Program-made: the position numbers and the translations under genes | NCBI GenBank assembly: GCA_038222225.1 | Contig: JBBRHV010000006.1 | Span: 1,626 to 65,625, forward strand | Origin: Candidatus Omnitrophota bacterium | GTDB taxonomy: Bacteria > Omnitrophota > Gorgyraeia > Zapsychrales > JANLHA01 | Reading direction: 5' to 3' | DNA length: 64,000 nucleotides | In this document: positions 12,001 through 58,820 of the stretch, piece after piece | Layout of the letters: each line of letters starts with the position of its first letter | Position numbering within the stretch: the first letter of the stretch is position 1 | Notes under the pieces: model-generated | The model's database searches: none | What the model was told of the DNA's origin: nothing | What the model saw: the letters and a program-made list of their open reading frames with translations, nothing else

Positions 12001-15000
12001 TTTTACCCGGAGATGTATACGCTCCCGTCTTTGAAGAGGCGACGATCCGGGCATTGAAAAAAGTGTTGAGCATCTTAAACGCTTCGCATGAAGAGATCAA
12101 GCCGCTTGTTGGTGAGATCAGTCATGGGGTCCTTGGGATCCGGGATATGAGATTTTTAAACATCGGCGGAAGGCAGATTTCGTTTATTTCTCGAACGATC
12201 CAACACGACGGCCGCGGGCGTGACTTTTTGGGACGATTGTGCATGGCTGAAAGCGGGGATTTGAACGGCAGGAAGGCGAATATGAATTTGCTTCGCATGG
12301 TCAAAGAACATGGCCGTCCGTATCCGGTTTCTGTCCTGTTTGCCTCTGGACGAACGATTGTCCAAACGCCGCAAGTCAACAGCGCGGTGCTTTTGACCGA
12401 ACCGCTGAGAAAAATGTTCCGCGCATTGAAACCGTGGCTGGTTATCGGCGCCGTTGCTGCCTGGGTGGGTTTTGAAAGAATGAATGCGAATCTCTTTTCT
12501 GGCCCTGAAGGGGGCGCGCATGAGAAATGGATCTTTCTCGACCTTGTTTTAGCCGCCGGTGTTATTGAAGAAATTCAATACAGGTTTGGCGTGTACAGGC
12601 ATGTCTTGAGGCCTTATTTCGGCGTTGTGCTGTCAGTCATCATCAGTTCTTTAGTTTTTGTGGCGGTCCATCTGATCTTTGCGGATGGGACCTTGATCGG
12701 TTTAATATATGTCCTGTTGTTTGGTGTAATTTCTGCCTTGATTTATGAAACCAGCGGCAAGCTGCGCTACGCTATTCTTCTGCACATGATCTCGAACTTG
12801 ATTTGGATCGGCATGAGCGCCGGTCCGTTTGCATATTTTATATTCACGGTCTCGCTTATGGCGCTGATGAAATTAAGCTTTGTTCTATTTATCTTCTATC
12901 ATACGGTCATCGCTGGCGTTAATGAGAGAGGAATCAAGGCCTTTGAACGTTTTGGAAAAACTGATTCGATTGATGAATGGTTAGGTCAAAAAGTTATCAG
13001 ACCGGCGGTGGCTGTGATTAAAAGCCGATGGGCAAAACTTGGCATGAATAAAATGTGGCGAGCAAAAAGCCCGGATGGAAAAGAACATCGCCGCATATAT
13101 GCTTTGGCATTCACAATCAGTGGATTGATCCTGACCTTGCAGTTTGCCGGAGACAGGATGTTCAGATTGTTCTATCCGGTCTCGCCAAGACCTTTGATCA
13201 CTCAAGAAGAGATGCGACAGAACATTCAGCGGGAGAGGGATAAGTTTGAAGCAGCAAAACGTGCCGCCCTCGCACAGACGCCAGGACTCACCACCAATGA
13301 TATTTTTGGTGTGATGTATTCTTACAAAGCGGATCTTTCATTGATCCGGGTTGTTTTATTCCATGACGGTCGCGCATACAGCGTGGAGGTGACATCGTCA
13401 GGTGAGACAATTGTCGATCCGGTAGCGTTATCATGCTACGAGGGCATTCTTACGCTGTTATTTTCCGACGGGCATATGGACAGACATCGTGAACTTCCTT
13501 TAAACGAACGGACTTGGAATGAAGTTGAAGCTTGGAAAAATAGATTGCCTCAAAAACCTGCACCTAAAGTACGGTCGAAACAGGGCGCGCAAAATTCATA
13601 TCATAAATTCAATACAGCGAGTTTGTACAAAGGGGTCAACAGCGCGGTGTTGTTGGGTTACTCGGATAAAGAAGCGTGGAACAAAGAGTCCGGGTTTTTG
13701 CTGGATACATTTTTTACATTTGAGCAGTATGTCGCGGCGGCTTTATATGATCCGGCCTGGGGATTTTATGGCAGTGGGAAGATCAAACTAGGGTTTGATT
13801 TCGGAACCATGCCGATCGCGCTGTCGCCGTTTTTCGGAGAGAAGGTCGCTGAGCGTGTGTACGAGATGTATATCGGCATGCTGAAAGCCGGTACCATCAG
13901 GCCGGATGAGCCGTTTTACATGATCGAGTTTGGGGCGGGAACCGGCGTGTTGGCAAGGGACGTACTGGCATTCTTTAGAGAACAAGCTAAACGCGGACGG
14001 GTTTATAAACGATTCTATGACAATTTGCATTATGTGATCAGCGACCGATCTAGCCCGCTGCTGGAAAAACAAAAGCAGAAGAATGCGGAGTTCTTGGAGG
14101 AAGGCAAGATCCAGTTTGTGATCGGCGATGCTCAAGAGCTTGAAACATTCTTGGAGAAAGAGCGTCCGATCAAGGGAGTTGTATTCTCCAATGAGCTTTT
14201 GGATGCCTTCCCGTCCCATAAAGTTTACATGGATGAACAGGGAGTGGCACATGCCATGGTCTCGATACCGGCTCTTGTCGATCAGCACAGTCCTGATCTC
14301 AGGCCTGGCAGCAGAGGCCGCCTATCGTCAACGATCAGCTTGTTGGCGCAAGTCGGAAAGGTGCTTAAGGCCCACGGGCTTTCGCTTGAAACATTAACTC
14401 AAAAAAGCCGTGAGTTCGCAGGGCGGTCGAATGTAGTCAAACAGATGGTGGATGATGGGGCCGTTGTTTTAAGTCGGGAGGATTTCTGCCGTATCCAGGA
14501 AATTTTCTCCGGTGAGAAAGTCAGTATGTATCGCGAGCTTATCCACAGGGTTATGGCGTTCTCTGAGATGACGGTTCCCGCGGCGCTGGTGCCCGGTTTA
14601 AAGGAATATTTAGATTTCCACAAAGATGAAATGAGGACGGCCCTTCAGGGAGAGTCAGGATGCGCAGTTGTCTCTTCCGGGTGGCTTTCGTTTGCAAAGC
14701 ATGTTTCCGGTTTGATCGATCAGGGATATGTCTTTACGATCGATTATGGAGAGACTACGGCGACATTGTTGAGCGCCAGGCGCAGAGAGAATTTTCCGAT
14801 TTCGATCTATCATCGACGTTTGGGAAGAGAGCGCAATCCTTATCTTCACCCTGGTGATGTGGACATATCGGTTGCGCCGGATTTCACGGTCTTTGCCCAG
14901 GCGGGGCTTGTTCATGGCTTGGTTCCGGTTTATCACGGGGAGCTCCGGTTCTTGCAGGCAGATTCAACCGAAAGGATTGACTCCGCGCAAACCGCTTCAC

Positions 15001-18000
15001 GGGTTAAGCGGCTGTTTACCCAGATGGCGATCGAGGCCAATATTGAAATTAATGCTCTTCGAGCACATGGATTTTCGGGTGATCAATCTCAGAGCATCGC
15101 TGCTGCGATGGAGCGTTATTTTAAAGAGGGTCGCCAGCCTGCGCCGGGAGAGCTTGACGCTAAAGCTCAGGCGGAATTTGACAGCCTTCTTCAATTCGGA
15201 CGTAACGATGCCGATGACAAATATCCTATCTGGGTTGAGCGTTTCTTGCATTCATCCGGGCATAAGATCTTGATCCAGCAAAAGGCGGGCACAGATCCAC
15301 ATTATTCGTTTGGCCAGCCGATCTTGCCGCTGTTTCAGGTGAAGCCCAAGACATCTTTGGCAGTTTCGAATGATTTTATCGGAACAAATTCATCCGTGAT
15401 CGACGATCAAAAGGTTGTTGTTGATATCCGCAGCCTGGCTGAAGATGCCTACGATGAAGCGTTTGCCACACGCCATTCGAATTATAGACGTCATGACTCC
15501 CATCGAGTCCATCATTGCGAGGTCAACACCAATATTTTGCAGGGATTCCTTCAGCTAAAAGGATACAGGGCTATTCAAGTTTTTCATACACCAAAAGGTG
15601 AACCGCAATATTTTGTTATGTTTATGGTTAACGGTGAGGTTTGGGTTGCTGAGCCAACTTGGCAGCTCATGATTCCTGAAGAGAATCGCACTGATGATCT
15701 TCCGCATTGTCTGGTTTTCAAAGAAGCGGATCTTGAGAAAATCATGCAACAATTCGGTATTGTTGAACATTGCCGCGTAAGTTGGCGCAAATCGGTGAGT
15801 GAGAATCGAGACAAACTATTTGAGACCGGGACAAGGGATTCTCTTGGGACGAACGGATCGGTTTTAAATTCAGGCATAACAGGTGTTAAAAAAGGAATAG
15901 GGTATGTGAGTTCGCTCTGGCAAAGGATGCGGCATGGGCGCGCAGACTCTTTTGATCTTCATCAGATGGAGGCTGCCTTCGGATTGCATGTTTTGGGACG
16001 GTTCCTTCGCCGTCGCCCAACGGTTCTGGTGATTCGCGGGAAGGGGCCGTTAAGCGGGCTGCAGGTTCTGGCAGAGGGCTTGGCCGCTCAAAAGTATAAT
16101 GTTGTTCTGTTCAATTATGATTACAGATTGCCGATCAGACAACTAAGCGCTTCGCTGATCGCAGCCTGGAGAGTATTCCAGAAGGCCCATCCACGGCGGA
16201 CGGAGTTTGGGGTGGTGGCGTATTCTTACGGGACAACAGTTCTTCGTTTGGCTGTGGTGAAATCGTTAGATGAGGTCTTCAGAGAGGGGCACATCATTGA
16301 GCTGGCACCGCTCTTGGGCGGATCTAGGAGCGCCTTGAGCGCATCGACGCCGGAGGGGATTGCCTTGGCGCGGTCTTCCGGCAAAGCGGATATGATCCAG
16401 ATAGGGAAGGCCTTGGATCCGAATGGTGAGTTCCAGGCGGAGTTGTTTAATGAAATCAATATTGGATTATATGAGGACCGGTTCAGCCGTGCTTCGCGTT
16501 TTGTGATTATCGCCGAAGGAGATGAACTTGCGCCGCGCCTGGACCGCCGGCCGGATCATTTCACGCGAAGGTATCAGGAGAATCTCGGAGAACATGTCGA
16601 AGTCCGTATTAAGCGGCAGCCGCATGATGCTTTGCCCTCAGAGCCTGCGGCGGTTACAAAAGTGATCGAGCGGTTGAACTCTCGACTTAGACCCGGTGTC
16701 GATACCGCTGAGAGAAAAGCAGACGGCCGTCAAGGGAGAGACATCAATAGCGCGGTGTTGTCCTCTGGGGCTGAGCCGGATTTTTCTTTCGACAAAACAA
16801 TTTCGCCCGATGTTCATCGTGCCAAGATTCGTTATGTAAGCCAAAAGAGAATCGCTCAGGATATGTCACGCACTAGCCATGACCGGGTTCGGGCTAAGGA
16901 AGCCTATTTGCTTGCAGTTCGCGATACGGCGATCAATTTAGCCCGGGCTAGGGATGAGCGGGTCGCTGCTGTACTGCGGAAAATATGTGATACGATCGTG
17001 GTTCGTGCCGGCCCTATGAAATATTTATTGGGGGCCTACCGTTCAAAAGAATTGTTCCTTGATGAATCTCTGCTTTCTGATCCTCAACAGTATTATGAAT
17101 TAATTCTCACATTATTGTATGAAGCGCGAGCGATTGCTTACCCGGCAGGTTTTAATGCGGAAAATGAGGGGTTTGCCCAAGATTGTTTGGTCAACGGGCT
17201 TATTCCAGAACGGATCCATCCGCGCACCGCCAAAGAGCGTCAAAAGATCGTGGAGGCGCTCAAGCTTTTACCAAAAATTCAATCCCCGGTGAATTATCTT
17301 TTAGTCGTGCCGATGTATAAGGAAATGTTCCGTTTGAGTCCTGAGGGCGAAGACGCGTTGCGGCGCAAGGTTTTGGCCATGGCTGTTCTGCATCGGTTGA
17401 ATCCGAATTTGAACGGCCGCATGCTTCTGGTTGATGACGGAACTCCATCCCTGGCATCTGAGGCGTGTGCCCGTGAGATTTGGCGTCAGATCCAAAAGGA
17501 ATTCCAGGCTCGCGGCGAGGTACTGGATCCGGAAGCCGTTACGTTTGCCCATGTCTCCGTTGAGGAAAAGAAAAGCAAGAAGAGCAGAAAAGGATGGGCG
17601 GTTCTGCGGGGGATGCGTTTGGCGCTGGAGCAGGGATGGGCAGATTATATTGGTTATACCGATACGGATATTTCAACAAATCTGCTTCAGATGCCGTTTA
17701 TTTTATGTCCCCTGATCGAGCGCACGGCTGACGTTGCGATCGGATCCCGTTGGGCCAGCGGCGGCAAACAGGAAGGTGTTTCGTTTAGACGGATGGTTTC
17801 AAGTAAAGTCTTTAATATGGCGGTTCATATGTTTCTGCCGGTTTTGTGGCGGATCAGGGATACTCAGCGGGCGTTTAAATTGTTTAACCGGTCAGTATTA
17901 AGAACCATTTTGCCGTATGCCAAGGAACCCGGCTTAGCGATTGATACAGAGCTATTAACACTTGTCCGTATCGCCGGACGGAAAATCATTGAAGTTCCTA

Positions 18001-21000: not shown

Positions 21001-24000
21001 CGACAAGCGCCAGTGTTCTAAATGGAGAAAGCCAGGAAAGTGCGGACTTTGGCGAGGATCAAGATTTATCTCAGATTCTGTTGATGGCCCAAAGGGACCT
21101 CCGGTCTGGGAACCTTTCGCGGTTTGCCGGGATCAATGCTGAAAATCATAAAGAGCGATTATCAGGATTTATTTCTGAGAGCATTCTTCAGAATGAGCGT
21201 TTTGCGCAGGTCATCGGCCTCTTGTCATTTATTTCTGATAATCAGGCTAGGTCTGCTTATGGCTATTCGCCGATTTGTGAACATATGAGTCAGGCGGTTG
21301 CGGTTGAGACGGCAATAAAAGAATTCCAGGTATTAGGCTTGGCGGGCTGGAAGGTCGATTCGAGAGTTTTGACCGGTGTCAAGGATTGGTGGCCCATCGG
21401 TTCTCATCATTCAGCCGCGATCGTTGTGATCGGGGATATTCGTTTCTTTGTCGATATGACATTTCCTGTTCTCATCGAAAGCAATTCAGATTATGCGGAT
21501 TTAAGCAAGCCTCATGGGCTTGTGATGATCCCTGAACAAGTTTTGATCGAACATCCTTCGTTCCTTCAGCTTTATCAGACAGGGATCGCCAGATCCATGG
21601 ATTGCGGATTTTCTGAAATCAAGGGCGTCCAAAGGGAGGATTTAAAATTGACCATGCGGCTCCTTTCTTTAGACGAATTTTCTGATGTGATCGAAACTAT
21701 TCCCGATGATTTTGTCGCTGAACGCTACTCCAAAGAAGAGAGAGCTGCTTTACCAGCCCAAATTGAGAGCCAGGCACTCAAGATCTATTGTTTCTATCTT
21801 CCTCGGGCGGTTTCTCAGGGAGTCCTGGCAAAAGGAGTCGGCATGGTTTTTGTCCGCCAGGAGGGAACGGGCCGTCGCGAGATCGATTTCTTTTTCTTGC
21901 GATGCAGCCTCACTTATATGGGATTTGGGCCGGAAATGATTAGGCGCGTTTTGAGAGAACTTCGCAAAGGAACATCAGGCGTGAAGGAAGTTGGAATAAG
22001 CTCCGGGTTCTTGAAGATGCTTCCGGAAGACAACGGGTCTTCAAAACGGGCAAGGCTTTCGAGAAAGTTCTTTTGCTATCTGGGATTTGAAGGTGATCCG
22101 TTGACGTTGCGTTTGCAAACTTCCGAGGAAAAAAACAAGGTCCCCTCCGCAGCGACAAATGCTTCGGTCATTTTGGATGGAAAAACCTTGAGCGAACAGA
22201 AACCGCTAACGGTTGAAGAATCGTGGCAGCTATTCGCCAGAAAGTTGGAGAAGGGGGCGCGTACGAATAGTCATTCTGGATTGGAAGACAATCCGGTCAT
22301 GTCGCATTTTAACGAGACGAAAAAAAGGAACGCGAATAATTCCTTTGAAACAAATGCGTCCATTCTTCTGGAATGGAGATTGAGGAAAATCATGCAGCCG
22401 TTTTTTGAAGGCGGATATTACGTCGAGAAGCAGGGGGATTCACGTCATGAAATGTTTCTGCGCGTGTGCCATCCGGAGCCAGAGAGACAGGGCGTGTTTC
22501 GTGGTGAAGACAAGACCCGCGCTTTCTGGGTTCAAGCGAGGGAAGATGAGTTTGAGGTCAACTGGGTCTTTCCGGATCTTCCGCCTGGCAAAGGTCTGGG
22601 GCGTGCTTTCATGGCCAGTGCACTTTTATTGCAGGATGGTTTTTGTGGAGGAAAGAAAAAGTTTATTATTGAAGACACAAAAATCTGGTTGTGCCGCAGC
22701 TTCAGAAAGCTTCCCGGATTCGGGATTTTTTATTGGGCGAAAACGTTTCAGTTTGTTGCGTTGCTGTTTTGGTTGGCGGGCCGCCGGGATGTTCTGAAAT
22801 ACAGGCTGACCGGGCGCGTACCCGAGGTTTCAGCGAAATTTAAAGCCTGGCTGCATGAAAGAAATGAACACAACAAGGGCAAGGCTGTAGGGACAGAGCT
22901 TCGAACGACCAATGCCGCGGTGTTGGGCCGTTGGGTGCATGCGTTCGAAGAGGGGTGGGGGCGTGCGGCGAAAACAACCTTGAGCAGGGTTGCTGATGAA
23001 TCGCTTGCATGGAAAAGAAAAATTAATGAGTGGGTCTCTTGGCTGAAAATTTGCCTGCACGTGACGGACCGCAGTGATCGAGTGGTTGCGGCACAGCAAC
23101 AGGATATCCAGATTATTGGAAACAATTTCGGTACGGAGCAACACCCAGCCCGCGTCGGATCGGTAGTTCATATGTCCAGTTCGCATGAACAGGACCCGGG
23201 ACTACCGGTCTGGCGCACATATTTCGAAGGAAAACTCAGCGGCGGGGTAAACGCGGCTGTGCTTGTCCCTGATCGCATGGGCAAGACGTCGGCGGACTAT
23301 TTTGATGAACTTGTCGCGCAGTTTAATGATCAAAACAATGAAGTTTGGCAGAGATTTCGTGCTTCTGTTGAAGCGAACCCCGATCAGTACGATTCAGTTT
23401 GGTTGAAAGTTTTGAAGCAGGCGCGTGCATTAGAGGTTGAAACACAGAAGCAGGTTCAAGAACCCGTGAAGATATTTTTATCGCTGGATTCCGTCTTGAT
23501 CGTTCCTGAAGATGGAAGCATGACCGGTCCTTTATTGCCGTTGGCGCCGGATTCGGAAGCAACGCATCATTTGCCTGCCCTGCCTGTGGTGCCGGAAGCA
23601 ATTCTTTTATTCATTTTCGTTTTGAGCCGCAAAAGACAAGGCCGCGGGGGGAAAGGCAGGGAGTACAGTTTAGCTGCATTCGTTGAGAGCATGCAGAGCC
23701 GATGGAAGGCCGTGAAACGTGCTGGTTTTACGGGCAAAGATTTCTTTGGAAAACGCCATGTCTATAATCTCACGTTGCGGTCTTCGTGTCGGAATTTTGC
23801 GTCAACAGGGTTGAGTGATCCGTCCGTAAAGTTTGCAGGAGAAAGTAACGCATCAGTTCTGAAGGATGCAAAGAATCGTGAGAAGCGTGACAGTTTCAGA
23901 AGTGGACGGCGGTCTCTTTCTGTCGTGTTCACCGTTCTTGGAGTTGCGATCGTTTTGTTTATCGCGCAGACAGCTTTGGCAGGATTGGAAAGGGCGGCCT

Positions 24001-27000
24001 TGGGGTCGGTTTTTGGAAAAACTTTTGAACTGTGGAAACAGTTCCATGGTCCAGACGTGGTTATTTCCATCTTGGCAACTGCAGTGATTTGGACTGTTTA
24101 TCGGGTCCTTGTTTCATTCAGGGCCATGCGGGCCCGGCTGGGTGAGCCGGCATTATTTTCAGGTTGGCCTGGAATTGCGCGTGTGATCATCGCAAAGGTT
24201 TTAAAGCGGATTGTCTATCCGCACAATAAAAATGCGAAATGCGCATCGGCGGCGGGTTTCCGTTCCTTTGCCCGGAGTTCTCGCCGGAAAGAGGTCCGTG
24301 AGGCCCTGATGCGCGCTTCAGCTCTGCTGCGCGAGTCCCAGCGGCCTCTTCTGGTTAAACACAATGATATAAGGAACGTCCTGTTTTTATTATTCCCGGG
24401 CCACATTCCAGCGGCGGTACGTTTGAAGGGCGAGATTATCTGGTCGCCATGGTGTCCGAGCAAGGAGGCCTTGATTTCACATTTGACCAGCGTGATGGGG
24501 ATTCGTCAGGAAGAGGCGCAGCTCACAGCCGATCTGGTTGAGATCTGCCTTTCCCAAGAGGAAAATGTCTGGCCTCATTGGCAGGCTGCCCGCCGGTATT
24601 TCAAGTCCATCCGTTTCAGGGTTCAGCAGGAAACTTGGCGGCTCATTGGACGTTCTTCAGATCGGCAATTAAAGGTTTACCGCAAGGCTGTCGAAGACCT
24701 CGTCCTTTTTAGGCTTGAGCCGGCCGGCGGGAAATCGGCTCCCATAGTATTTTCGAAGTTCCGGGAGAGGCTGGTTAAGTTCTTTGGTGAGCGGCCCGAA
24801 ACTGCGTATATCGCAGGCTTCGATGGTGAACTGATCGAATGGCTCTATGCCATATACGATGGCGGACTTGGAGAAACAGCGTTTATCCAGGAGGTGGTTC
24901 GCCTCATGGATGTTGCTAATAATGTGGATCATGCGATGTCCGACCATGTTGAGGGCGCATTGAAGGATGCCGGAATTGAGAACCTGAAACCAATGTCCGT
25001 TGTGTTTGCTTTTGATCCGCACAGCGGGACTGCGGCAGATATTCTCAACGGAAAACTCAGAATTAATTATTATCAGTACATGTCGAGTGTGGCTAAGGTA
25101 GAGGAATTGCTGGAGACCCTTCTGTATGATATTTACTTCCATATTATTTATGCGGATCAAATGCGCTCGAATGAATTTTGTGATCAGGCTTCGCGCTCTG
25201 AAGCGCCTGGCGTGGTCAAGGGAAGTTATTTGCGAGGAGAATCGTATCCGGTTTCAAGTTTGGAACAGGGGGACCGTATTCGTCTGCATGAACGATTGGC
25301 CAAGCTGACCGCAGAAAAGATCGCCGCACAATTGGTGTTTGGGAAGGATTCTCAGATCGCCGGTTTGAGGCGGCGCTTTGTGGCGACGTGTGCTAAGTTC
25401 AAGTCCGGAGCGTCAGTCGCAGAATTAGCACTGGAAGTCGCTTCGCGAAGAGCCGTCCTCCAGGTCGAAGGACATGCCGGAACCTTGACAGAATCCGCCC
25501 GACAGCTAACGGAGTATTTGAAGGCTGCGCTATCGGCTGATTTGCCGGAACAGAAGCAGGTTATGGATTATATTGAGATTCAGGCACAAGCCATGGCGGT
25601 ATTTTTTGAGAAGATTGAACTGACCTCCGATTTTCGCGTCAGGCTTATGTCCACAGCGGGCTTTTTTGGGGAAGGCGCGCATGATCGTCACGGCATAGCT
25701 GAGGTCGGCATGAATGGGATTGGGATCATTCCTGTCAATCGGCTTTCTTTTGATTTCTTATTTGAAATAAAGGCCCGCGTTGCGGCTGCGCTGACCGGAT
25801 TCCGTTACCGCAAGATGGTCAATGATCAGCAGGCTGTAGTTCATGGTCAGGCTAATTTGCTGTTGTCCAATCCGATGGCGCGCGAGCTTTTGATCAAGAC
25901 GTTCCGTTTAAACGGAAGCCGGGATCCAGAAAAACGCGCGGATGATGTCCTGGCCGGGCAGCATGATCTTTCCCGTTTTGAGGAGGAATTGAAGGCAATG
26001 CTGAGTGCGTTGGGATCCCGTTATGTGAAGGTTGGATGGGATGAACAGGGAAGAGTGATCTGTCCTTTGCTTGATCCAAGTCAGATGAAAGAGGAGATCC
26101 TTAAAACGCGCTTGCGCGGCAACGTGATCGTTTTTGCGATCCGCCCAACGGTCGGCGGCCGCGCTTTATTCTCGACCTGCCTTCCGGATGACGATGATAA
26201 TTTTATTTATTATCATCTTCGCGGAGCTATAGAATTTGATGAACAGGGAGAATGTAAGGGGATCATTCTCCAGGGAGGGGAACCGCGCGATCCTGACTTG
26301 TTCATGAAATATCATGGATATTTCGGCGTATATTCAGAAAAAGACCTGATGGCGATCCTGCGCAATGACATGATCCTGGCAGCCCGCCGGTTCATGAAGA
26401 GCGGCCTGTTTGATCCGCATACGGAGGTGGGGATTTTATATATTGATCAAAACGGAGTTGATCAGTCGGAGAAGGTCCGGCTTGTCGACCTTGCCCGTGA
26501 TGTTCTGTACCGTCAGCACGATGCTCCCCAGCAGAATCACCCGAGCTATGTTCCTCAGACCCGCATACTTGCCTTAGGAGAAATTCTGCTTTGGTACAAT
26601 TATTTCCATTTGAAAAACAGACTTGGGTTATTGCTGGATTCAGAAGCGAGAGAGTATCTCAGCGCCGTCAGATCGCTCCCTTGTTATGAGAGCCTTGTGC
26701 GTCATTTTCCGACGGTGGAAATTGCTGAGGTTGACGCGCTGCCCCTGGTGGACTCCTCAGGGGAAAAGACCGGTACCAGGGTCGGAGATTTAAGGATGTT
26801 CGGTTCATGGAAGCCGTTCCTGACAGCAGAAGATGCGCATTCGAATAAGACAATGTCTTGGGAACAGCGAGTCATGACGAATGCATCGGTCAACAGCGGA
26901 ACAGAAGACGATGAAGGACCTTTGAGGGAATCATTGATCAGGAAAGAGGCGGGTGAAAGTATAGCGGCGGAAGCTTGGTACATGGGACAGGAAAACGGGA

Positions 27001-30000
27001 AATATCGCGACTTTGGCAGTTATTTGGCAACCCATCCATGGGTGTATGATCTGAAAAAAGGAAAAGCCGACAGCGGGGCCAATTCATCCGTACTGGGACG
27101 CAGAGTTGAGCTAAAGGATTTAGTTTTTCAATTTGCTTTTGAGATGGAACGCCGCGGCCGCGTGATCCGCACCCGGGCAGGAAGGATCCTTGATATTGAA
27201 GAAGACACTGAACTTAAGCGTTCCAGGGTTATAAAAGAGGAGGGGATGAGCACGTACCTCTTGGCTGACCGTTATGAGAGAGGATCGTCCTTGATGGCCT
27301 GGGTTGCGCAGGGAGAGATCATTGGTTACGGCTCTTATGTTCTGTCAGAGAACGATTCAGCGTGGATCGGATTCTGCATTTTTGAAGAGTATCGTGGCCG
27401 TGGGTTTGGCAGCCGGGCCTATTCAAAGTTGATCAGCGTTACACAAAACATTGGCCTAAGGCCAGTTGTGCAGTGGAGATATCCGCCTATTACTGTTTTA
27501 AACAAGAAGCTTTATCCAGGTGCGCGCTGGGATCTTTTGCCGTTTTTGTTGAGAAAGGGATTCCGTCCGTGGTTTGCTGATATTTCAGAAGAACACATTG
27601 AGCGTATTGCCAGAGGGGAACATGTCGGTTCCCGTATTGTTCACCGGTTGGTCCAACAGCCGTTGGTCTTGACGGACCACGCGAATTCCGCTGTTTTGAC
27701 TTCAACAACAGTTGGTCACGAACCGTTCGCTTACCGTGTGTGGGTCAAAACACCTCCGGTGTTAGCCGAAGGTAAATTTGCGGAATTGAGTGTAAAGGGT
27801 GGCTTATTGAGCGCGGCCAGATGCGCCGAGCTTAACGCCGAGTTGGAAGGAGCGAAGAAAAAAATTCTAGCCGAAGGATTCTTTGATGAAAAAGATTTTG
27901 ATCTGGAAGTCCGCATTCTCCGACGTGCCTACCATAGTGAATCCTTCACGCGACAAGTTAAAAAGACAATTCTTTTCCTTGATGAGCGGACATTCCAACA
28001 TTCGTTTGCTCTTTATCTTGCCGTTAAACATGCCATAACAGATCTCTGGGTGGATAAAAATGCGGAAACGCTGATCGCGCATGATCAGTTCGGACATCTG
28101 AAAGATTATATTTCGGAATCTTCCAAAGGAAGATCTTTTAATCCGGCCTGGCGTGAGATTTTCACGATCTTAAACGTTAATGTTTTTGAGTTTTTGCTTT
28201 TGCGTGATCAAGCTCTCAAGAAAGCTGAAGAATTCATTCGTTCGATCGGAAAAGAGGCGGCCGTGCACGGGCTGTTTTGGCTTTATGTATTGATGCTGTC
28301 TGATAGAGAAAAAAAGACGCCCATAGAATGGATCGGCGTGGTTTTCGCCCTTGTCTCTTACAGCCCTGCTGTTTATCCGGCTATCCGAGCACGGGCGCAT
28401 GCTTTTGGTATGTATGAGAATCCGCAGAGGGCACAAGCTTTAGCGCGGAGTGTGGAAGGGGTTTTTGCAACCAAGGACTTGCAGATCGGGGCACAGGCTC
28501 AAGCCAGGCTTCAGGAGTTGCGCGGCTATCAAAAGCAAAGCGAGATTGACCGTTTGGCGGAAAGCATGAGAGCTCTGGTTTCTGCAGTGCAGCGCTTGAC
28601 GGATGAGGGATACAGGCCAGAACAGTTGACGTTGGCGTTTTTCAAAGACGTTCCTATTAATCCGGTTGATCGTAAATCGTGGTTTAAGCCGTTTAAAAAA
28701 TGTCAATGGGATGATCCGTTGCAGAGGAATTTGAGTCTCGGGCGGACATCGCGCGTGAGGAAATCTCCGGGATCTAACAGTGCGGTGCTTAATGGTTTTG
28801 AGCCGTCCGGGTCCTCTATAGGGCATCCGGGCCCAGCTGCTTCCAATAAGGTTTGGCTGATCGTTGCGTTTGTGCTGCCCATCGTTCATGGACTGAGCAT
28901 TGTGCTGGCGAAATATATTCTGGGCGTTCAGCTGGTGCATCCGATTGGGTATTTGTTTGCGTTTTTTGCTTGGACAAATATCTGGATGTTTTTGTTCCGG
29001 ATCGCACAGAGCTTCAGCAACGGCCAGCGTAATGAACAAACGCCATGGAGCTTGTTGCGCCATTGGAGTTTTACTCATCGGGAATGGACGGTGCTTGAGC
29101 AGTCGACCCGGGCAGAAAAGTGGATGATCCGCGTGAACGCGTTATTCAGCCAGTTTATTCTCACGCTGTTATTTATTTGGTCACTGAAAAGCGGCCTTTT
29201 AACAGCGGTTTATTCCATTTTGCAGACCTCCGGCTTTGTGTTCGGCCTGTTTCTTGGAGCGCTTGTTCTGGGAAAAATTCTAAATATTCACGCGGAAAAA
29301 TTACGGTTCCGTCATTTCGCCGGCATTGGTTTAGCTGTGACCGGGGTTGTGTGGGCTTTGGCAAGTGTGGGCATAAGTCAGGGCCGCGGGATCCGGGGCC
29401 TAATTGAAATGGTCATCAGCGGCTTAACCAGTTCGGGAGCAGGGTATGCCATCGGGTTGGCCGGGCTGGTCGGCTTTCAGGCCCTTCTGCAGAAGATCAT
29501 TATCAGTGTGATGAATAAGGGCAAGCCGTACCGGCAGAAACAATTGCCTTATGTTATGACAAAATACGGATACCGGTTTGGGATCACGACAGCGTTGTTA
29601 ACGCTTCTCGGATTAGCCATCATTTCTCCTGCCGTGGCTCCGTCGGTCGCTGAGATTGCAGCGTGTTTTTTCAATCCGTATTTGATCGCCTTGGCGGGAA
29701 TTTTTCCAATGATATGGATCACGACCTATACCTTGTACCGCAAACTTCCTTTATTGCAGCTGACCTTTTTCCGTGCAACCATTCCTTTCTGGGTCATGCT
29801 CGGGTCATTTGCCGCAATGCATACAGCGGTGACGTTCAGCCAGGTCATATCCGGGCTTTTTGTTCTATCGGCGGCGGTTGTGGCAGCGACGGGCACTCAG
29901 AATGGAAACAATCAAGACGCGGTGCCGGATTTTCAAGCAGAGAACGGCCAGGACAAAAGAGAAGTTGTCGTACGCTGCCATTCTTGGTTTAAGCCATGGG

Positions 30001-33000
30001 AAAAAAGGAAGAACCGGATCCATTTGCGTCCGGCCAGTAGAATTGTTTATGTTGCGAAGTACATCTGGGATCAATTGAACATTCGTATGATCGTTGAAAA
30101 GGAAGGAGATCAACAACAGGTGGATGCCCGAAGTATCAACGGCCTTGCACGTCTGGCAATCTTTGACGGGGAAAAAATTTCAATTCGAACAGAGGGCTTG
30201 GCAGATAGGCAGATCAAAGGCAAAGCGGTTGAACTTTTTGCTAGGATTTTGAGAGACCCGGGGGTTCTTCAGCACAAAACGATTTGGGACATTTTTTATT
30301 TCTTTGATGAAGGGCGGGGGATAGATCAATTGTCCTTGCGTAAATATAAGCGTGCGGTTGATTTGATCAAGCTGGATGCGGCGGAGTCGGACCGACCTGA
30401 TAGGGCGCAAGTCAATTCCTCAGTTCTATTCGGAGCATCTCTGGCGCAGATCGATGCCTCTATCGTTGGTGATGTGGTCGGAATGATCATGTTTGCTTTG
30501 GGGTCGGCGGTTACCTGCATTGCGGCCCTGTTGATATGGCTGGTTAGAACACAGCGGTTCCGTATTCATGGGTTCTGGGTTAGGAGCTATACACCGGAGG
30601 AGATGAAAATTCGCCGGAGCGTTCATGCGCGGATGATCGATTTTTGCATCGGAAGCAAGCATTCTCAGAGAATGGCAGCTCAACGCATGGCGGGCCGTTT
30701 TACGCATTCGGCACGCAAATCATACAGATATCTTGTTGATATCTATGGAAGAGAAAAAAGCAAAACGGAATTTTTAAAATTTTTGAGAGAAACAGAAAAG
30801 GATCGACTGGTTACTTTTTTAGTTTTCTTAGAAAAGAAGAAGATGCGGTTGATCGTCGCTCCGCGATTTGTGGAAGGCGGAAAAGAATTCCGTCATCTGG
30901 ACATGCAGCATGGGTTCGCTTTGGAGGGCGTTCTAAAAAATTATGTTTACGGATATTTTGAAGGGATTGACCCAACGGACGATCAAGGAAAGATCGTGCT
31001 GATGTATTTGGCGGGGGAGGAGGGGTTCAAACAGCTACAAGAGTTGGCATTTTTATTTATTACAGGCGGAATATCCATAGTGAAGCCAGTCGAGCTCTTT
31101 ATGGATTCGGGAACGATAGGTGAGATCAAGACTGTGCGTGATCTTTTGCGTGTTGAGTATTTCTATCAGATAAAAAAGCAGAAGCAAAAAGAGGCGTTAG
31201 AAAAACGCATTGCCGAGGATAGGGCCGCGCAAGACGGGACCAACGCGGCGGTTTTAGAGAACGGCACAGCGGATCATGAACAGGACGGTGGCGAAACAAA
31301 TGCCGCGGTGCTGGATTCCGAAAACGAAAGCAAAGGGGAATTTTTGGCCGGGACCCAGCAGGGGATTCGGCTTGGGCTTTTGACACTTGAGGAGGCGCGT
31401 CTTTGGGAGAGGGCGGCAAAGATTGTTGATGCTCCTGTCGGCATGGAGATAGAATTCAGTCATCCGGAAATTGCGACATTAGGTGATGATGAGTATGATC
31501 TTCCCTATTATATTAGCGAACATTATTCGGATCCTCATTTGGAATTTAATCTTGAGCCATCTTGGAATCTTGGCATTCAAAGATATTTGGTAAGGCATAT
31601 TTACCGCAGTATGGGGTTGTCTGAGGATGATGTGATCTCGGTCCAGTTAAACTGCGGTATCCGCAAGAAAGATTATGAGGGGCTTTCTCAAGCTTCCCGC
31701 GGATTATTTTTATCTATGGCGCATTATTTAATGCTTGCGGTTACGATCGTTTATGCATCAAATCAAAGGATCTTATCAAAGAAATCAGAAAAGGTGGCCG
31801 AAAAACGGGATTGCGCTGAACCGCTTGATGGAGAACCCTACATTCGGATCGAATACGGTTTTCTTGATACGATCGATGAGGGGTGGCTGGTTCTCTGGAT
31901 CTTGCATCAGGTTATTTGGAAAACTGCAAGGTTCAGCGACGATCAAAAAATTTCCGGCAAACTCATTCGTGAAGAGGAGCAGTTGCTAATCAAGATCGGG
32001 CAGGACATGGTTATTCAATTGCATGAACGTCTTCCAGGTATTAGAGGATTAAGTGCGAATGATATATTTGACCTGTCGGATGCTCGGACGTGGTTTAGGT
32101 TGGTTCCGTGGCGCCAGGAAAATCCTGCTACGGTGAAGGCCATTGACAATCTTCTCCAGAAAACTGTGCTTCAAGTTTTGTCCACTTTAGGAGGGTCAAA
32201 CCATACGCCAGAGAAGGAAGTGCCGGTTTGGATTTTACCGGCTGGAAATCGGGAGACATTTTTAAGATGGTTTGGTAATCGGGAGCAGGCGATTGCTCAT
32301 ATTCCTGAGCCTACAGGTGGACAGGACGAGGTAAGGGATGGCGGAGTTAATTCTGCCGTTTTGGATCAGAGAAACATTGTTGGTGTTGAAGTGCACTGTC
32401 CGGCAGGATCAGGATATTGGCTGAGAGATATTCTTTATGAAGGGATCCCGGTTCAAGGCGGGCTGGTGATCCGGTATTATGATCAGTCGCGGTGGTCGTC
32501 AGGAATTGCAGGGATACGGACGGTTCGCAGTGATCATGGATTTTTTACAGAAGTGGATATGTTAAGAATATTAAATGGAGAGGTCCCGACAGACATTTTC
32601 TACGTGGGGGCTTTTCATTTGGGATGTGTTCGGCATGCGTTTGAAAGCGCGCTTCAAATTCAAAAGACAGGCCTGTGGAACGGGTCTCAAGCAAATCATC
32701 ATTTCATTTCAAACCGCATTGCCTGTGATTGTGATGATTTCGATATTCGTGTCAGTGATGCTTTGCCGAGGCTGAATCTGAGGACTGCAACGCCGTTTGC
32801 CTGGCGCAGAAATTGGAGTGTCAAAGCAGCGGTTATTCGGGGAGATGAGGTTGTAAGTAACACACGATTTATCGATCAGCTTCAAGCGAGGCTTTATTAT
32901 TGGAACGATGTGCCGGAATTTAAGGAATGGATAAGCCGTGGGATTCAGCAGACAAACGCAGCGGTTTTGAACCAGAGAATGTTTGAGATCGTGGATACAC

Positions 33001-36000
33001 ATATGATCAGGCGCAGAGTAGCGCAGAATCTTCAGGCATTGGAAGGCCTGCTGCGACAAAATTTTTCAGATCAAATGCTGGCAGAGGCTGCGCAATATCT
33101 TGCGCCGTTCACCACAGAACCGATCCTGTTCCATGAGATTTCAGATCAGGAGCGTGGGGAGCTGACGGTCGTTGATTTAGGCAACCGGCCGGCGGGATCG
33201 TTTAAGCCATGGATCATTTATGGTGTGATCAAGGCTATTTTGGAAGGGAAGACAACGATCGTGACCGCCAGCACAGGAAATCAGGCTATTGCTGTTCAAA
33301 AGATCATTGAGCAGATCAATGCAACGCCGTCGTTGATCGGTATCAACGCCCAAAGGCTTGGAATAAAAGTTGTTCTATTTGTGGGCCGTCATACTCCGCT
33401 GGAAAAAATCGACCGCATCAAGCACGGTGACGGACTTGTTGAGATTGTCGGAGATCCGAGGGAGAACGGCAGGTTGTTTGAGAACTATGAGGGGGCCTAT
33501 CGCGCCGCACGAGTCTTTGCAGCCCAAGAGCCTTCTAAGAATTATTTTGTTGAACATGCCGGGCGGGAGGCCATTGCCGGGTATATTGTTTTGGCAAACA
33601 GGGTCTTTGATCAGTGGCTCGCTCAGGGGCGAGATCTTCATCAAATGACAATACGGGTTGGGGTTGGCGCCGGAGGTTTGGCCAGCGGGTTTGCGATCGC
33701 GGCATTTTTAAGGGGAGCGGGCGTACGGATCATTGGGGTTCAGACCGATCGGACTCGTCACGCCTTTGATTCTCTATTTCAGGGAAGGATTCTCCCCTTT
33801 GTTTCAGGGGATACGAGTGGTGAATTTGATGAGGATGGGATCGACACAAAGACGCTTGAACCGATGGCGTTTTGGGCATTATCACATTTCTTGGATGGAT
33901 TGGTTCTCGTTGATCATCAGGAAGTTCCTTCGGCGATAGATTCTTATACACAACATGGAGTTGCGGCTGAAGGCGCGGCAACGCTGCCGTTCATTTCTTT
34001 AGAAAGATCAGCCCGTTTGTTTGATGATGAAGGGTCCCGTCAGCAGATTTTGATCGCCACCGGAAGAAACCGCAGAATACAACCGGGCTTGAACAGTGAT
34101 CAAGAGGCTAATGCCGCGGTACTTGGCGTCATGACCCCGCATGATTTTGTACATGATGGACGAATTTTGAATGAAGTTCATGCGTCAGGATCGGTTGTGG
34201 GGATCGTCCGCGAGATCAAGCGCGGCGCATCGCGTGTGGCAAAAACACCGGATCATGTCCGGCAGTTGACGCAGAGTGGGCTGATCGTTTTGGTAGAAGC
34301 TAAAGCTGGCGAACGCAGCGGGTACAGTGATGATCAGTACCGGCAGGCTGGCGCGTTCATTGTCCTTTCGGCTCGTGAGGTTTGGGAGCGGTCGGATATC
34401 ATCGTCAAGGTGAAAGAACCTCTGCCGCAAGAATATCAATATTTCCGCCGGGGATTGATCTTGTTCACCTATTTCCACTTAGCAAATCCGGAAAACAAAA
34501 ATTTGACAGAGGAGTTGTTGCGCACCGGGGTGACAGCTATTGCCTATGAATCTGTTGTGAAGGATGGACGGACAGTTCTGTTGGAGCCTATGTCGCATAT
34601 TGCCGGATGGTCTGCGGCGATTCTTGGTTTGTTGTATTCCCGCGCGTCGCCGGATTACAAGTTCATGATCGAGCCCGATGGCCGTATAAAAGCGGAGTTA
34701 GCCGCTGATATTCAGCAGTCCGCTGAACCGCTGGCCGGGCAGATGCAAAAAGAATTCGACACTTTGCGCGAGTCGCGGTTCTGCATGGACGAACCCGGAT
34801 TAAGGATTTTGATAGAAAAATTTGGAGGGCTTGGTAATGTCGTGGTTCTGGGTGGAGGCAATGTTGGACGTCAGGCGGCCTATATGGCGATGTTATTACA
34901 ACCACGTTCGGTCACGGTTTCCCAGTTGCCACACTTGCAGGAGGCGTTGCGTGAAGATCTCAGACGGTATCAGGGTCAAACGGTATTTAAGATCGTCACG
35001 CCTGATTCGGCTGAACTCATGGAGGCTTTAGAGCAGGCGGATGTCATTATTAGCGGGATCTATGCGCGCACTGCTGAGGGCGCTACCCGCGCATTGAAAG
35101 TTATTGATGAAGGCCTTCTTGAGAAGATCAGCCGCGGCAAGAAAAAGGTCATTATCGATGTCGCCATTGATCAAGGAGGGAATATTGAGCCGGCATTTGA
35201 CCGGCAGGAAACGGATCCGTTTACCTATCTCGACCGCCCGGCTCGACTGGACAAATTTGGTAATTTGCGCATGGATATTCCTAACATGCCGGATGCGTTT
35301 GGTCCGGTCGCTTCTCCCTATTTGTCACATGCCACCCAACCGTTTCTTCTTTCGCTGGTCCGCATGTCAAACGCGCAGGATATCCGCGAGAGGGATCCAG
35401 TGCTTTGGACCGGGGTTGCCGTAATCGATGGGCAGTTACTGGATAGGGCTGTGGCACAGTCCCATGGGTTGAAACACGGTGGTCAGGGGACAAACAGCGC
35501 CGTGGTGATGAGTGATTCCTTCGGCAAAGAGAGTGACGATCGTGTCAGATTAAAAGGTTGTGGGTCAAGGTGGGCGCAGGTTAAGGCTGTTATCGGCCGC
35601 TCGAGTATCCGGGAAGAAGATTCCATTGAAGTCACTCTTCCGGGCAAAGATTTCCGCATGGATCTTAAGGCTCTTGCGCTGACGGGGTTGAAGGATATTG
35701 GATTGGCCAATTACCGCAGGGTTATGGAGGCTATGGAGCTTAAACACATTTGGAAACAGGTCTTTCTATCGGACATTCTTAAAGCCCTGGCCAGAGTGAA
35801 GTTTGTTCTAATCGATGATCCCCAGCGGAATGGGTCAGCGTCCCTGATCGCTGATGGATGGAGACGATTTATTGCTGCGGCCGTTTCCGTTGAAGCCCCT
35901 GGCCGGATCTATTTGTCACGGTCTCTTGTTAAGGACATAAAGAACAGAAAAGAATTCGATGCCCTGATCGGATTTGTCTGGAGTGCGGGTTTTTGGATAG

Positions 36001-39000: not shown

Positions 39001-42000
39001 TGGCGTTCGCGGAAGATCTTGTTGCCCTCATGCCGGATCCTGAACACTTTGATGAAACGGGTGAGTGGATGACGTGGTTTAAGCCTCATGCATTTAATGG
39101 GAAATTCACCCTTGAAGCATGGGGTCTCGGGCAGGAGTTCATCGATCGGTTGAACAAGGTGCGCGGGGCAGACACGAGCAAAATCAACAGCGTCGGGGTT
39201 AATTCGTCTATTTTTGGTCATTTATTCGGGGCAAAGAAAGAAGCGGCAGACATTGATTCTACGGAGGTCAGACAGGAGATAACAGAGTGTGATTTTGATC
39301 AGGCCGTGCGCGGAGTTCGACGCCTGGTTAATGAAACGCCGACAAATGAAATTGCAAAAGTTCTTTACGGCCTGCTTCAGTATGAGGAGGACTATTTGTA
39401 TTATCAGATTGTTCGTTATGAGGCTGCCAAGAGAATAGCCAAGGCATCGGTGGAGGAATATGAAGATCTGAAACAGTTGATCAGCACATTGCGGATGCTC
39501 GGGAAGATGATTGAAGATCGCCAAAAATTGTTTGAGGAAACAGGGGAAACGAACGTTGACTTTTATTTATTAGCCCTTCGACAGTCTCGACAGAAGTTAG
39601 CAAGATTATTCCGTTTTCATATTCGGGGGTATGAGAATCTTGACCGGGTCGTTCAACGGTTGGACAGCGACACGGTGGAGTATTTATTTTCGTTCTTCAG
39701 CAGGGCATCAGTTCAAGAATTCACCAGCTTAGATGAGCTCATGCAGATCATGACATTTGTCCGGCGGCGCACTTCTTTGGTGGATGAAGATCTGTTGGCG
39801 CGCGCCAAAGAAAGCCTTGAACGGATCATGGTGGAATGGGTTTGTGAAGTCGGCGGAGAAAAGGATCCTGATCTAAGGAGCCAAGAAGTCAGGAATATTC
39901 TAGAATACATTACACAGCATGATCGGACATTCCGTCAGAAATTGAAAGAAGGCATCAAGAGGGCCATTGGTTTCTTAGCCCGTCAAATCAGAAAGAGTCA
40001 AGATGACGCAAGGGAGGCGCAAAACTTGGCAGATAAGAAGGCCGTTGAAGGACGGCAAAACACACTGATTGATTTAAGCGTGAGTTATTCGGCGCTGATG
40101 ACAGCAGTGGATGATGAGTCAGGAGACGGAAATCTTGATGGAAACAATTTATGGGAAAGCCAAGACAGCCAACAGACAGATAAAAAATCAAACAATGATT
40201 TGGGTGCAAATGCTTCTGTATTGATGGGAAGAGAAAATTACAGGCATCTTAAAAAAAGATTTGATGATACAAACGCGGCGCTATTGATTGGAAGAAGTGA
40301 CAGGTCACAGACAAACAAGGAAATAAGGGCGAAGAGGCTCATTCAGGGGTCGATTTTAAATGCGTTTCTCTTTTGTCTTCCTGCTTTGGTCATTGCGGTG
40401 ATCGCTGTTGTGACTTGGGGGCCAAGCTGGAAGATATTTGTGGCGGTCTGGGTTATTCTGGCGTTAACACGGTTTGCAATGTCCATGCGCCATATTCCCG
40501 ATATTTGGAGAACATTGCAGGGCTTAGGTACGCCAACGAAGGGCGGCATCATTGAATTGGCTAAGGCCACTAAGACCAAGATGGAAAGGAAAGCTGTGGC
40601 GCGTGAGCAAGCCCGCAAGAAAGCGATTCATCAGGCCAAGGCTGCTATGGGCAGGGTTTCTCCCAAGAGTTATGCCATACAAGAGGAGTATAGCACCGAG
40701 GTGGGCCGAAAGATCCCGGCGGAACTTAGAAACGACGAAGAAATTGTTGAGCAATATGAAAAATTGACAGCCCGTGCGGAAGAATTTTTTGCGCGCAAAG
40801 TACGTTCACAAAAACCGAAAGAGACTGCGCCGCAGCATATTCCTGAGGTGGCACCAATACCGATAGAGCCTGTCCAAAGACAGGAAGCGCCTGAGGCGCG
40901 CGAAATGGCCAGAAAACGGTTCATTCGTCGACAGCTGGCTGAGGCGCGCCGTTATATTGAAAAGCTGGACAGCCGCGGGTTTATGAGCGCGCATGAGTTT
41001 TTGAACGCCGCCGAAACGTTTAAACCGGAGTGCGTTAAAACATATCCGGATGATGCTCAGGTGAAGGATTTTCTGACGTGGTTTGATTGTGCAGTTCAGG
41101 CTGTGGCACAACAGGTCGCGGATAATGTTCGGCGCATGGAATTTGAGGAGCGCAAAAAGGAACTGCTGGCATCATGGCGAATGATGGTTGAGAAATTGGA
41201 AAGAGCCCGGCAACGGCTGGATCAGGCTATGGCGGCAAGGATTTCCAAAGACCGCGCTTCGTTGGCAGAGTTGCAGAGAAGGATGGATCAACAGGTCGCG
41301 GATAATGTTCGGCGTATGGAATTTGAGGAGTGCAAAAAGGAACTGCTGGCATCATGGCGAATGATGGCTGAGAGATTGGAAAGAGTTCGGCAGCGGCTGG
41401 ATCAGGCTATGGCGGCAAGGATTTCCAAAGACCGCTCTGCGTTAAGTGAGTTGCAGGTAAGGATGGATCATCTGGCAGCGACCATAGAACAGCTTCGTCA
41501 GGCAAAAGATGTTTTGCGCGCGTTGACTTTGCCATCCGCGACCGCCGGTGAGGATGATTTGCGATCCGCGATTTTACAGGTGCTTCCCGTTGAAGTCAGA
41601 GAAGACCCGCGCTTGGCGCTTTTTATCGAACAGGCCAGGTTGCGGTTGTATGAACACGCTGTGACGCGGGTTTTGGATATTTTGTCTCAGTCTTCAGTTG
41701 ACCCCAGAACTTTTGATGACAGCGAGGCCTTCCGCCAGGCATGGATTGCGAAAGTGCCGGTATGGATGCAGGAGGATCAACGTATCATTGCAGCCCTTGA
41801 AGAGCGTATTGATCAAGGCCTTTTGGTAATAACCGAACAGGAGAAAAAGTCTGCTCAAGTTAAAAGGGAACAGGCATTAGAAAAAAGAGCGACTATTGGG
41901 GAACTTTATACCGCCTTAGGAAAAAATGATTTTGGAACGGCACTGACGAAAGCCTTTAAGTTGCGCACATTGGTTGCTGATATGCCGGTAGAGGATTGGT

Positions 42001-56891: not shown

Positions 56892-56956
56892 CTGGCCGGG
56901 ATTTCTATAAAATGGTTTTGGTAAAAATAAAAAATTATATGAATTTTAGATTTTAT

Positions 56957-57009
56957 GTATAATAAGTGAACTTGCGGTTGTTTTATTAGGGATATTGAAG
57001 ACGAAGGAG
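56957..57009 (+). promoter_or_regulatory. Possible promoter -10 element and Shine-Dalgarno for the aldolase gene
   Basis: AT-rich 126-nt intergenic region. TATAAT at 56957-56962. AAGGAG at 57004-57009, 8 nt before ATG 57018. No convincing -35 found. Confidence 0.4.
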
Positions 57010-57017
57010 AGGAAAAA

Positions 57018-57968: not shown

Positions 57969-57999
57969 AAGACAGCGTAAAGGGAAGCGGCAGGTGATA

Positions 58000-58130
58000 G
58001 AAATACAATTGAAATATAATGGAAATACATAGAAATAAGAAATTCGGAAAAAGAGAAAGCTTAATCAGAGCAAGTAATCGTTAGGGTTTTTTATTTCAAT
58101 GTATGTCTATATTTTTCCATGTATTTCAAT
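58000..58130. repeat. Phased GAAATA direct repeats and inverted ATTGAAATA copies in the aldolase-eda intergenic region
   Basis: GAAATA at 58000, 58011, 58022, 58032 (10-11 nt spacing), GAAATT at 58039. ATTGAAATA at 58008-58016, with its reverse complement TATTTCAAT at 58092-58100 and 58122-58130. Confidence 0.5.
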
Positions 58131-58147
58131 CTGTTTTTAATTTGAGT

Positions 58148-58777: not shown

Positions 58778-58820
58778 TGTCTTGTGATGATAAGAGGCAT
58801 AGATATTGCAGGGTGATAAT

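Follow-up and report, generated by a model that had tools for sequence, protein, structure and literature searches.

Why a boundary motif should stand twice within a few residues of a giant bacterial protein is the question raised by a stretch of Candidatus Omnitrophota DNA. The stretch, here called the window, spans 64,000 nucleotides (assembly GCA_038222225.1, contig JBBRHV010000006.1, positions 1,626 to 65,625 of the forward strand) and carries a giant open reading frame (ORF; 78-56891, forward strand) of 18,937 amino acids (aa) with no internal stop codon of any kind. Some 50 mutually unrelated modules are chained in this ORF, and a junction with the consensus x-N-[A/S/G]-[A/S]-[V/I]-L lies at nearly every module boundary. 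In a few places two junctions enclose a micro-module of 13-31 aa or a mini-module of 59-65 aa. The reading favoured here, with moderate confidence, is that such doublets are cargo-less by-products of module gain, module loss and junction gain, that the junctions are owned by the neighbouring modules and that a redundant copy tends to decay. The doublets are a minor and probably neutral feature of a more interesting system, the boundary motif.

Three close pairs and three mini-modules, all on the forward strand, pose the problem. In pair 1, TNAAVL copy 1 (31239-31256) and TNAAVL copy 2 (31296-31313) flank the 13-aa acidic spacer ENGTADHEQDGGE (31257-31295). Pair 2 consists of ANASVL (40206-40223) and TNAALL (40269-40286) around the 15-aa spacer MGRENYRHLKKRFDD, and pair 3 of VNSSVQ (5124-5141) and ANAAVL (5235-5252) around 31 aa. 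The 59-aa mini-module occupies 22155-22367 including its junctions, TNASVI (22155-22172) and TNASIL; the 61-aa mini-module (26895-27077) occupies 26877-27095 including TNASVN (26877-26894) and ANSSVL; and the 65-aa mini-module occupies 52383-52613 including INAAVL and TSAAVL (52596-52613), the latter followed directly by a SEC-C motif. All of these elements lie where the initial annotation of the window placed them, with the spacer lengths that it gave. The perfect pairing that it described holds for pair 1, the only close pair in which neither copy departs from the canonical form. One non-canonical copy is involved in each of pairs 2 and 3 and in each mini-module, namely TNAALL (L at the V/I position), VNSSVQ (Q for L), TNASVI, TNASVN and TSAAVL, which amounts to a non-canonical partner in five of the six close pairs.

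Structure prediction places both copies of pair 1 in a segment of low confidence. The upstream module (30429-31238, forward strand; ~270 aa) has predicted membrane helices, and the core of the downstream module (31332-32195, forward strand) is confidently folded. In an AlphaFold model of the downstream module built on a 10-sequence alignment, the block-mean predicted local distance difference test (pLDDT) score of residues 50-337 is mostly 83-93, with short dips of 58-68 (predicted template modelling score 0.70). The two TNAAVL copies (19-24 and 38-43) lie, with the spacer between them, in residues 16-49, which score below 50; the 13-aa spacer itself scores 35-36 and is predicted as coil. The confident fold begins seven residues past copy 2. 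The linker leading to the next junction after the downstream module likewise scores below 50, and the C-terminal helix of the upstream module is weakly predicted (pLDDT ~50). A model of aa 10114-10758 from the single sequence is uninformative (mean pLDDT 37). A confident fold covering both motifs, looked for at pair 1, is not predicted, and a Pfam search of the three mini-modules and the 31-aa spacer at E values up to 10 returns no match; the initial annotation's claim that a junction can persist without a cargo domain stands.

The downstream module belongs to a family with conserved PIGLEIE, SVQVNVG, RIxxKKT and RxEYGFxD motifs. A Foldseek search against the PDB suggests a weak likeness to the glutamine synthetase, YbdK and Dop folds (best E = 3e-3, template modelling score ~0.27), that is, to the glutamine-synthetase/carboxylate-amine-ligase fold. 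The family is present in many giant proteins of Omnitrophota and Elusimicrobia and once stands behind a lipoprotein-like signal (P0006).

Comparison with relatives indicates that the two copies of pair 1 belong to different neighbours. The closest comparator, R, is an orthologous giant ORF joined from an ENA metagenome contig (L004) and the metagenome-assembled genome (MAG) RA.bin146 (L006, JAKLFA010000005.1), which are 100% identical over an overlap of 5,111 aa; it totals 9,844 aa and is free of stops beyond that length. R was found by an alignment-based scan of genome contigs, and a single-sequence scan gave no match. The upstream module of pair 1 is common to R (63% identity) and to a more distant giant, L005 (42%). 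At the position of copy 1, R and P0001 have VNSAVL, and L005 has ASSPV nearby. In distant homologs of the downstream module, a junction variant of their own (GSSSIH, VSSAIL, ASSAVD) precedes the first conserved motif at a distance of 0-10 aa. Copy 1 is therefore kept with the upstream module and the copy 2 site with the downstream family, so that each copy is owned by a different neighbour. R lacks copy 2: GMIASL is aligned there, a different module of 1,212 aa follows, and the counterpart of the spacer is a low-complexity stretch, NSNGKNGNANGNGHEEEGLK. R has a doublet of its own, VNSSVL-24 aa-VNSAVL, on the other side of the shared upstream module, where the ORF has a single junction; that upstream boundary reads VNSSVL in the ORF, VNSAVL in R and VSSPII in L005. 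The failure of R to keep the pair 1 spacer as a doublet argues, from the alignment, against a conserved bioactive peptide at this site.

Elsewhere, the ORF and R differ by whole modules. R contains 25 copies of the same motif and shares modules with the ORF at 48-75% identity and in the same order, with many gains and losses. Eight of the 10 ORF junctions in alignable blocks are motifs in R, and identity between the two is 0.82 in the motif versus 0.30 and 0.41 in the eight flanking residues on either side. The insertions and deletions that separate the two ORFs are bounded exactly by junctions. In R, the end of ORF module 14 is followed by one junction and then module 17; the ORF adds the 384-aa module 15, a junction, the 59-aa mini-module and another junction. 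At the site of the 61-aa mini-module, R carries three full modules (212, 224 and 206 aa; ~640 aa), and the degenerate TNASVN of the ORF is a canonical TNASVL. The initial annotation proposed a comparison with related giants to see whether full modules occupy such positions; at the 61-aa site they do. R also lacks the block of modules that holds the CPBP domain described below.

Junctions also arise by small insertions. The VNAAVL junction at 23247-23264 (forward strand) was gained by a 6-aa insertion inside an otherwise contiguous domain. It is absent from the 74%-identical ortholog in R (YFEGKLS------VAGAD) and from the ORF's own paralog near 56391, in the last module (compare 56304-56554: YFEGKLSMAEAD, YFEGKLSMAEADRMGKT). 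As aligned here, it is a direct case of junction gain. The two modules concerned (22914-23849 and 56073-56888) form the one diverged paralogous pair of the ORF, recognised by means other than the BLAST self-search, which finds no internal paralogy at E<1e-5.

Close spacing of junctions is no commoner than uniform placement predicts. Three gaps of at most 40 aa are seen against 4.2 expected for 46 junctions (P of at least 3 = 0.81), and short gaps are slightly depleted if anything (coefficient of variation of gaps 0.66). The pair 1 copies differ at 6 of 18 nucleotides, all synonymously, which speaks against recent duplication at the DNA level. Another junction lies within 75 aa of 5 of the 10 degenerate motifs, compared with 7 of the 39 canonical ones (Fisher one-sided P = 0.05), a clustering consistent with weakened selection on the redundant member.

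The motif itself is far from random. Strict matches to N[AS][AS][VI]L number 37 in the frame of the ORF, whereas 500 residue shuffles average 0.17 and never exceed 3; the other five frames contain 0-2 matches, and the six downstream genes (2,070 aa) contain none. The total rises to ~49 junctions when variants with G or with a single mismatch are counted, provided that their surroundings are equally polar. The junctions outside the first pattern include TNGAVL (9573-9590), TNGSVL (15849-15866) and TNSAVV (35490-35507), the last of which divides the alanine dehydrogenase part from another 426 aa; R carries TNGAVL at the sites orthologous to TNAAVL (aa 3399) and ANSAIL (aa 6432) of the ORF. The motif holds ~19 bits of information. 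First and second codon positions of the motif N, A/S, V and L are fixed, third positions are near-random (entropy 1.45-1.83 bits where four or six codons are available, 0.99 for Asn with its two) and Ser is written as both TCN and AGY. Free third positions and the use of both Ser codon families point to selection on the peptide rather than on DNA or RNA. None of 46 junctions falls inside a Pfam domain across 20 domain stretches (expected 6.2, P = 0.0012). A hydrophilic zone from about -13 to +16 surrounds the motif, itself a small hydrophobic patch, according to a crude hydropathy scan that also calls a helix inside a module predicted by AlphaFold as a soluble fold.

Several known signals do not account for the motif. 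An N-glycosylation sequon is ruled out by Ala at the third position in 31 of 40 motifs, self-cleavage by an Asn-lyase mechanism by the Ser that relatives carry in place of Asn, and a double-glycine C39 site by -2/-1 residues that are not consistently GG. Freely varying synonymous sites rule out a DNA- or RNA-level signal, and the absence of NPGP rules out 2A-like ribosome skipping.

Among more distant giants the motif changes by lineage. SSP[VAI] occurs 22 times over 6,591 aa in L005. The motifs that flank homologs of the downstream module are ASSAVL/ASSAVD in L003/P0008 and GSSSIH/ASSSLH in P0009, and VSSAIL precedes the homolog in P0019. Lineage-wide, concerted switching of the motif is what a single cognate recognition factor would predict. 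Close spacing also recurs. L003 (Omnitrophota MAG GCA_016208765.1) contains a linker cassette, ~50 aa long, that holds the motif two or three times and recurs at least six times, in the forms ASSAVL-23 aa-ASSAV[DN] and ASSATE-8 aa-SSSAIK; one version, NSGDTIFNSDEG-ASSAVL-KEPSFPNNLETVSKSIGTVGKRG-ASSAV, is found for example at 12944, 14060, 20611 and 21229. L005 has four doublets, and 4 of its 21 gaps are at most 34 aa. The nucleotide identity of the L003 cassettes (65-87%) exceeds their amino-acid identity (52-79%), and their divergence is equal across codon positions (0.222 versus 0.229). This pattern fits DNA-level repeats or concerted evolution rather than selection on the peptide. The four adjacent large ORFs of L003 are probably one giant gene, since the ORF break at 8110 is a frameshift inside such a cassette.

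The host ORF appears to belong to the giant multi-enzyme type of Omnitrophota, to which its size (at least 10,000 aa), varied Pfam content and closest homologs, from Candidatus Omnitrophota MAGs, assign it. It is a real coding sequence: differences from R by codon position are 0.197/0.139/0.433. About 17 distinct Pfam families are represented, none a dominating repeat. They include rhomboid, APH, metallophosphatase, TPR, protein kinase, HATPase_c (two), GNAT (five) and CPBP protease domains, together with methyltransferases, HPr, a PALP enzyme, alanine dehydrogenase, HTH and SEC-C. Module sizes match those of free-standing enzymes (rhomboid 217 aa, GNAT 201 aa, PALP 385 aa, alanine dehydrogenase ~460 aa). 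A 1,038-aa module without assigned function contains a tandem duplication of 180 nucleotides (60 aa), 91% identical, at 41104-41463. Sequencing run SRR19962012 yields a 4.6-kb Logan contig with 100% identity to positions 54530-59152, and its sample offers material for work on the organism.

Two proteases encoded in the ORF are candidates for processing it. An N-terminal rhomboid domain (171-662 in module 78-728, forward strand; Pfam E = 5e-23) has intact catalytic Ser115/His180 (HxxxxHxxxN, GLS115A, AH180LGGLIFG), and a CPBP (Rce1-like) glutamic intramembrane protease domain (12528-12803 in module 12381-13640, forward strand; Pfam E = 4e-13) retains EExxxR, FxxxH and HxxxN. No further protease domain is detected in the ORF by Pfam or NCBIfam, S26, S24, C80, C39 and S8 included. 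With the cut marked by an arrow, the motif read as x-N-[ASG]↓[AS] satisfies the requirement of Ser-Lys peptidases for small residues at -3 and -1, and read as ...A-A↓V-L it fits the rhomboid motif. Although x-N-[ASG]↓ obeys the -3/-1 rule, the 13 aa upstream are hydrophilic, which is not the arrangement of a signal-peptidase-I site; nor do most junctions adjoin a transmembrane helix in the crude scan, as rhomboid substrates would. A conserved short motif between independently functional units, one hallmark of a processed polyprotein, is present.

A scenario consistent with these observations runs as follows. The motif, sitting in a hydrophilic and probably disordered linker, might be recognised at the peptide level by a single partner specific to the lineage. 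A processing protease is the most plausible such partner and would make the ORF a polyprotein. Each junction would belong to an adjacent module, relatives would come to differ by whole junction-bounded modules, and small in-frame insertions would create further junctions. Module turnover or junction gain could then leave two junctions side by side with linker alone between them. The spacers of 13-31 aa, if cut, would be shed as inert peptides. One site per boundary should suffice, leaving the redundant copy free to decay, which would explain the non-canonical partner in most close pairs. We infer that the spacers are neutral, and likewise which protease would be at work. Considered alone, the micro-modules of this ORF probably are neutral by-products.

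Several observations weigh against this scenario. R is a single close relative and covers pair 1 and two mini-modules only; the modules around pair 2 have no detected homologs, leaving pairs 2 and 3 without comparators. The statistic for decay is marginal, and some judgement entered into which motifs were counted as degenerate. Cleavage at the junctions is a step that we infer from anatomy only, with the protease a candidate; both proteases in cis are intramembrane enzymes, whereas most junctions lie far from a predicted helix. Pair 1, for all its synonymous differences, retains a perfect motif at each site, and both may be selected. Further, L003 and L005 share a spacer core, ETVS[KE][SP]IG[TK]V, in their doublets and triplets. 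Conservation of a micro-module between junctions is therefore possible across lineages elsewhere. The core occurs at aa 147 and 6189 of L005 and at aa 616, 997 and 1369 of P0008, flanked by the local motif (ASSP[VA] or ASSAV).

These last points bear most directly on a role for the doublets. Two sites might ensure complete or ordered processing or trim the linker, or the peptide might have its own role in docking the protease or in signalling, as the repeated L003 cassette, the short gaps of L005, their common spacer core and the intact copies of pair 1 would suggest. We consider such a role unlikely for the ORF: doublets occupy only 3 of ~48 boundaries, no more than chance; R is missing copy 2 and has its doublet at another boundary; the L003 cassettes diverge as DNA-level repeats do; and the ORF spacers have nothing in common with each other or with ETVSKSIGxV, of which no likeness was found in the ORF or R. 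A narrower version, in which the junctions are true processing sites and the micro-modules are freed as peptides with a role of their own, with ETVSKSIGxV as the archetype and the ORF spacers as diverged or new members, is improbable. If it were true, released peptides could time ordered processing, as retroviral spacer peptides do, or dock the protease. The initial annotation had also suggested that the short modules, if the junctions are not cleaved, look like remnants of deleted modules. For an origin by internal deletion from modules once of full size, parts of the comparison with R agree: the ~640 aa at the 61-aa site, the joint absence from R of module 15 and the 59-aa mini-module, similar residues just inside the junctions (SGTEDD versus VSGFDD, ...KADSG versus ...TPGSE) and synteny breaks at 4 of 4 micro- and mini-modules in the R-comparable region. 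Nearly every comparable boundary is a synteny break, however, so the association weighs little. The mini-modules have no residual similarity to R's modules, their Smith-Waterman scores lying at the level of shuffled sequence (z = -0.6 to +0.5). Spacers of 13-15 aa offer too little sequence for this comparison, and junction gain by insertion is seen directly. A deletion origin is accordingly doubtful.

Two further accounts question the junctions themselves. The motif could be a linker element, such as a chaperone or docking site, in a protein that stays intact, with the doublets as linkers that happen to hold two sites. This is possible, though not favoured: the motif is linked to no protease, an A-V-L hydrophobic patch in a polar linker would also suit a binding motif, and a 2026 preprint, silent on cleavage, describes the giants of this kind as membrane-anchored (bioRxiv 10.64898/2026.06.07.730766). 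Concerted switching of the motif over all boundaries of a lineage speaks against it, as do modules sized and bounded like free-standing enzymes and the interleaving of polytopic membrane modules with cofactor-dependent soluble enzymes. Two adjacent small residues followed by an aliphatic one are also typical of serine-protease sites. It is very unlikely that the close pairs consist of a genuine junction and a random resemblance next to it. A loose pattern does give 2.5-7.3 matches per shuffled ORF, and pairs 2 and 3 each have one non-canonical partner. Pair 1, however, is perfect twice and has the usual flanks, with G or E ahead of the motif and polar residues behind it. Chance should place fewer than 0.4 loose matches within 40 aa of any strict junction, and TNASVN has a canonical counterpart in R. 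Of all these readings, the by-product one has the best support.

A lineage-specific motif at almost every boundary yields exact, testable cut-site predictions for Omnitrophota giants and a principled way to split giant ORFs for structure prediction. The doublets sharpen the test. A cut inside the motif would give products of 19, 21 and 37 aa, not the 13, 15 and 31 aa of the spacers, and cleavage would thus yield defined peptides of 19-37 aa. The doublets also illustrate how such an ORF may evolve, as junction-bounded modules come and go, 18-nucleotide insertions add junctions and redundant copies decay.

Giant ORFs are known in Omnitrophota, including a 'multi-enzyme metabolic cluster' class, class 1 of the 2026 preprint (bioRxiv 10.64898/2026.06.07.730766; West-Roberts et al., bioRxiv 10.1101/2023.11.21.568195). 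Like the present ORF, these giants exceed 10,000 aa, tile varied Pfam families without dominance, include HATPase_c, GNAT and methyltransferase domains and have interspersed membrane segments. Papers on giant bacterial proteins ask whether one chain persists or is cut, and one of them calls the protease motifs hard to predict. Unlike the present account, this literature states that cleavage points are unknown, does not apply the terms motif, junction or polyprotein to the boundaries and does not describe doublets. Literature searches on the motif sequences and on polyproteins in Omnitrophota gave nothing relevant, and no description of the junction motif was found in the literature available.

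Rhomboid substrates are cut in or beside a membrane helix, and a recognition motif for them was reportedly defined by Strisovsky and colleagues in 2009. In the register T/V/I-N-A-A↓V-L, the junction shares the small P1 and the hydrophobic P4 and P2' residues of that motif, and an intact rhomboid is the first module of the ORF. Most junctions, unlike rhomboid substrates, lie in polar linkers with no helix nearby, and P2' in L003 is D, N or K. MARTX toxins offer another parallel. These giant bacterial toxins carry effector modules that vary by recombination and are freed by cuts in unstructured linkers after Leu and before a small residue. The ORF resembles them as a giant modular bacterial protein whose modules differ between relatives. 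It differs in that a C80 protease and RTX repeats are not detected by Pfam or NCBIfam, its modules are not toxin effectors, and its motif is longer and far more uniform.

Viral polyproteins release short spacers, among them SP1 and SP2 of HIV Gag, the birnavirus pVP2 C-terminal peptides cut by VP4 at (T/A)-x-A↓A and coronavirus nsp11. The present ORF differs in lying on a bacterial chromosome, in being ten times longer, in encoding unrelated metabolic and regulatory enzymes and in having spacers that are not kept in a close relative. As in those viruses, one ORF would give many products through a short conserved site at each boundary. Closely spaced viral sites free peptides of 7-46 aa, and the ORF register T-N-A↓A would likewise suit the -3/-1 rule of Ser-Lys peptidases.

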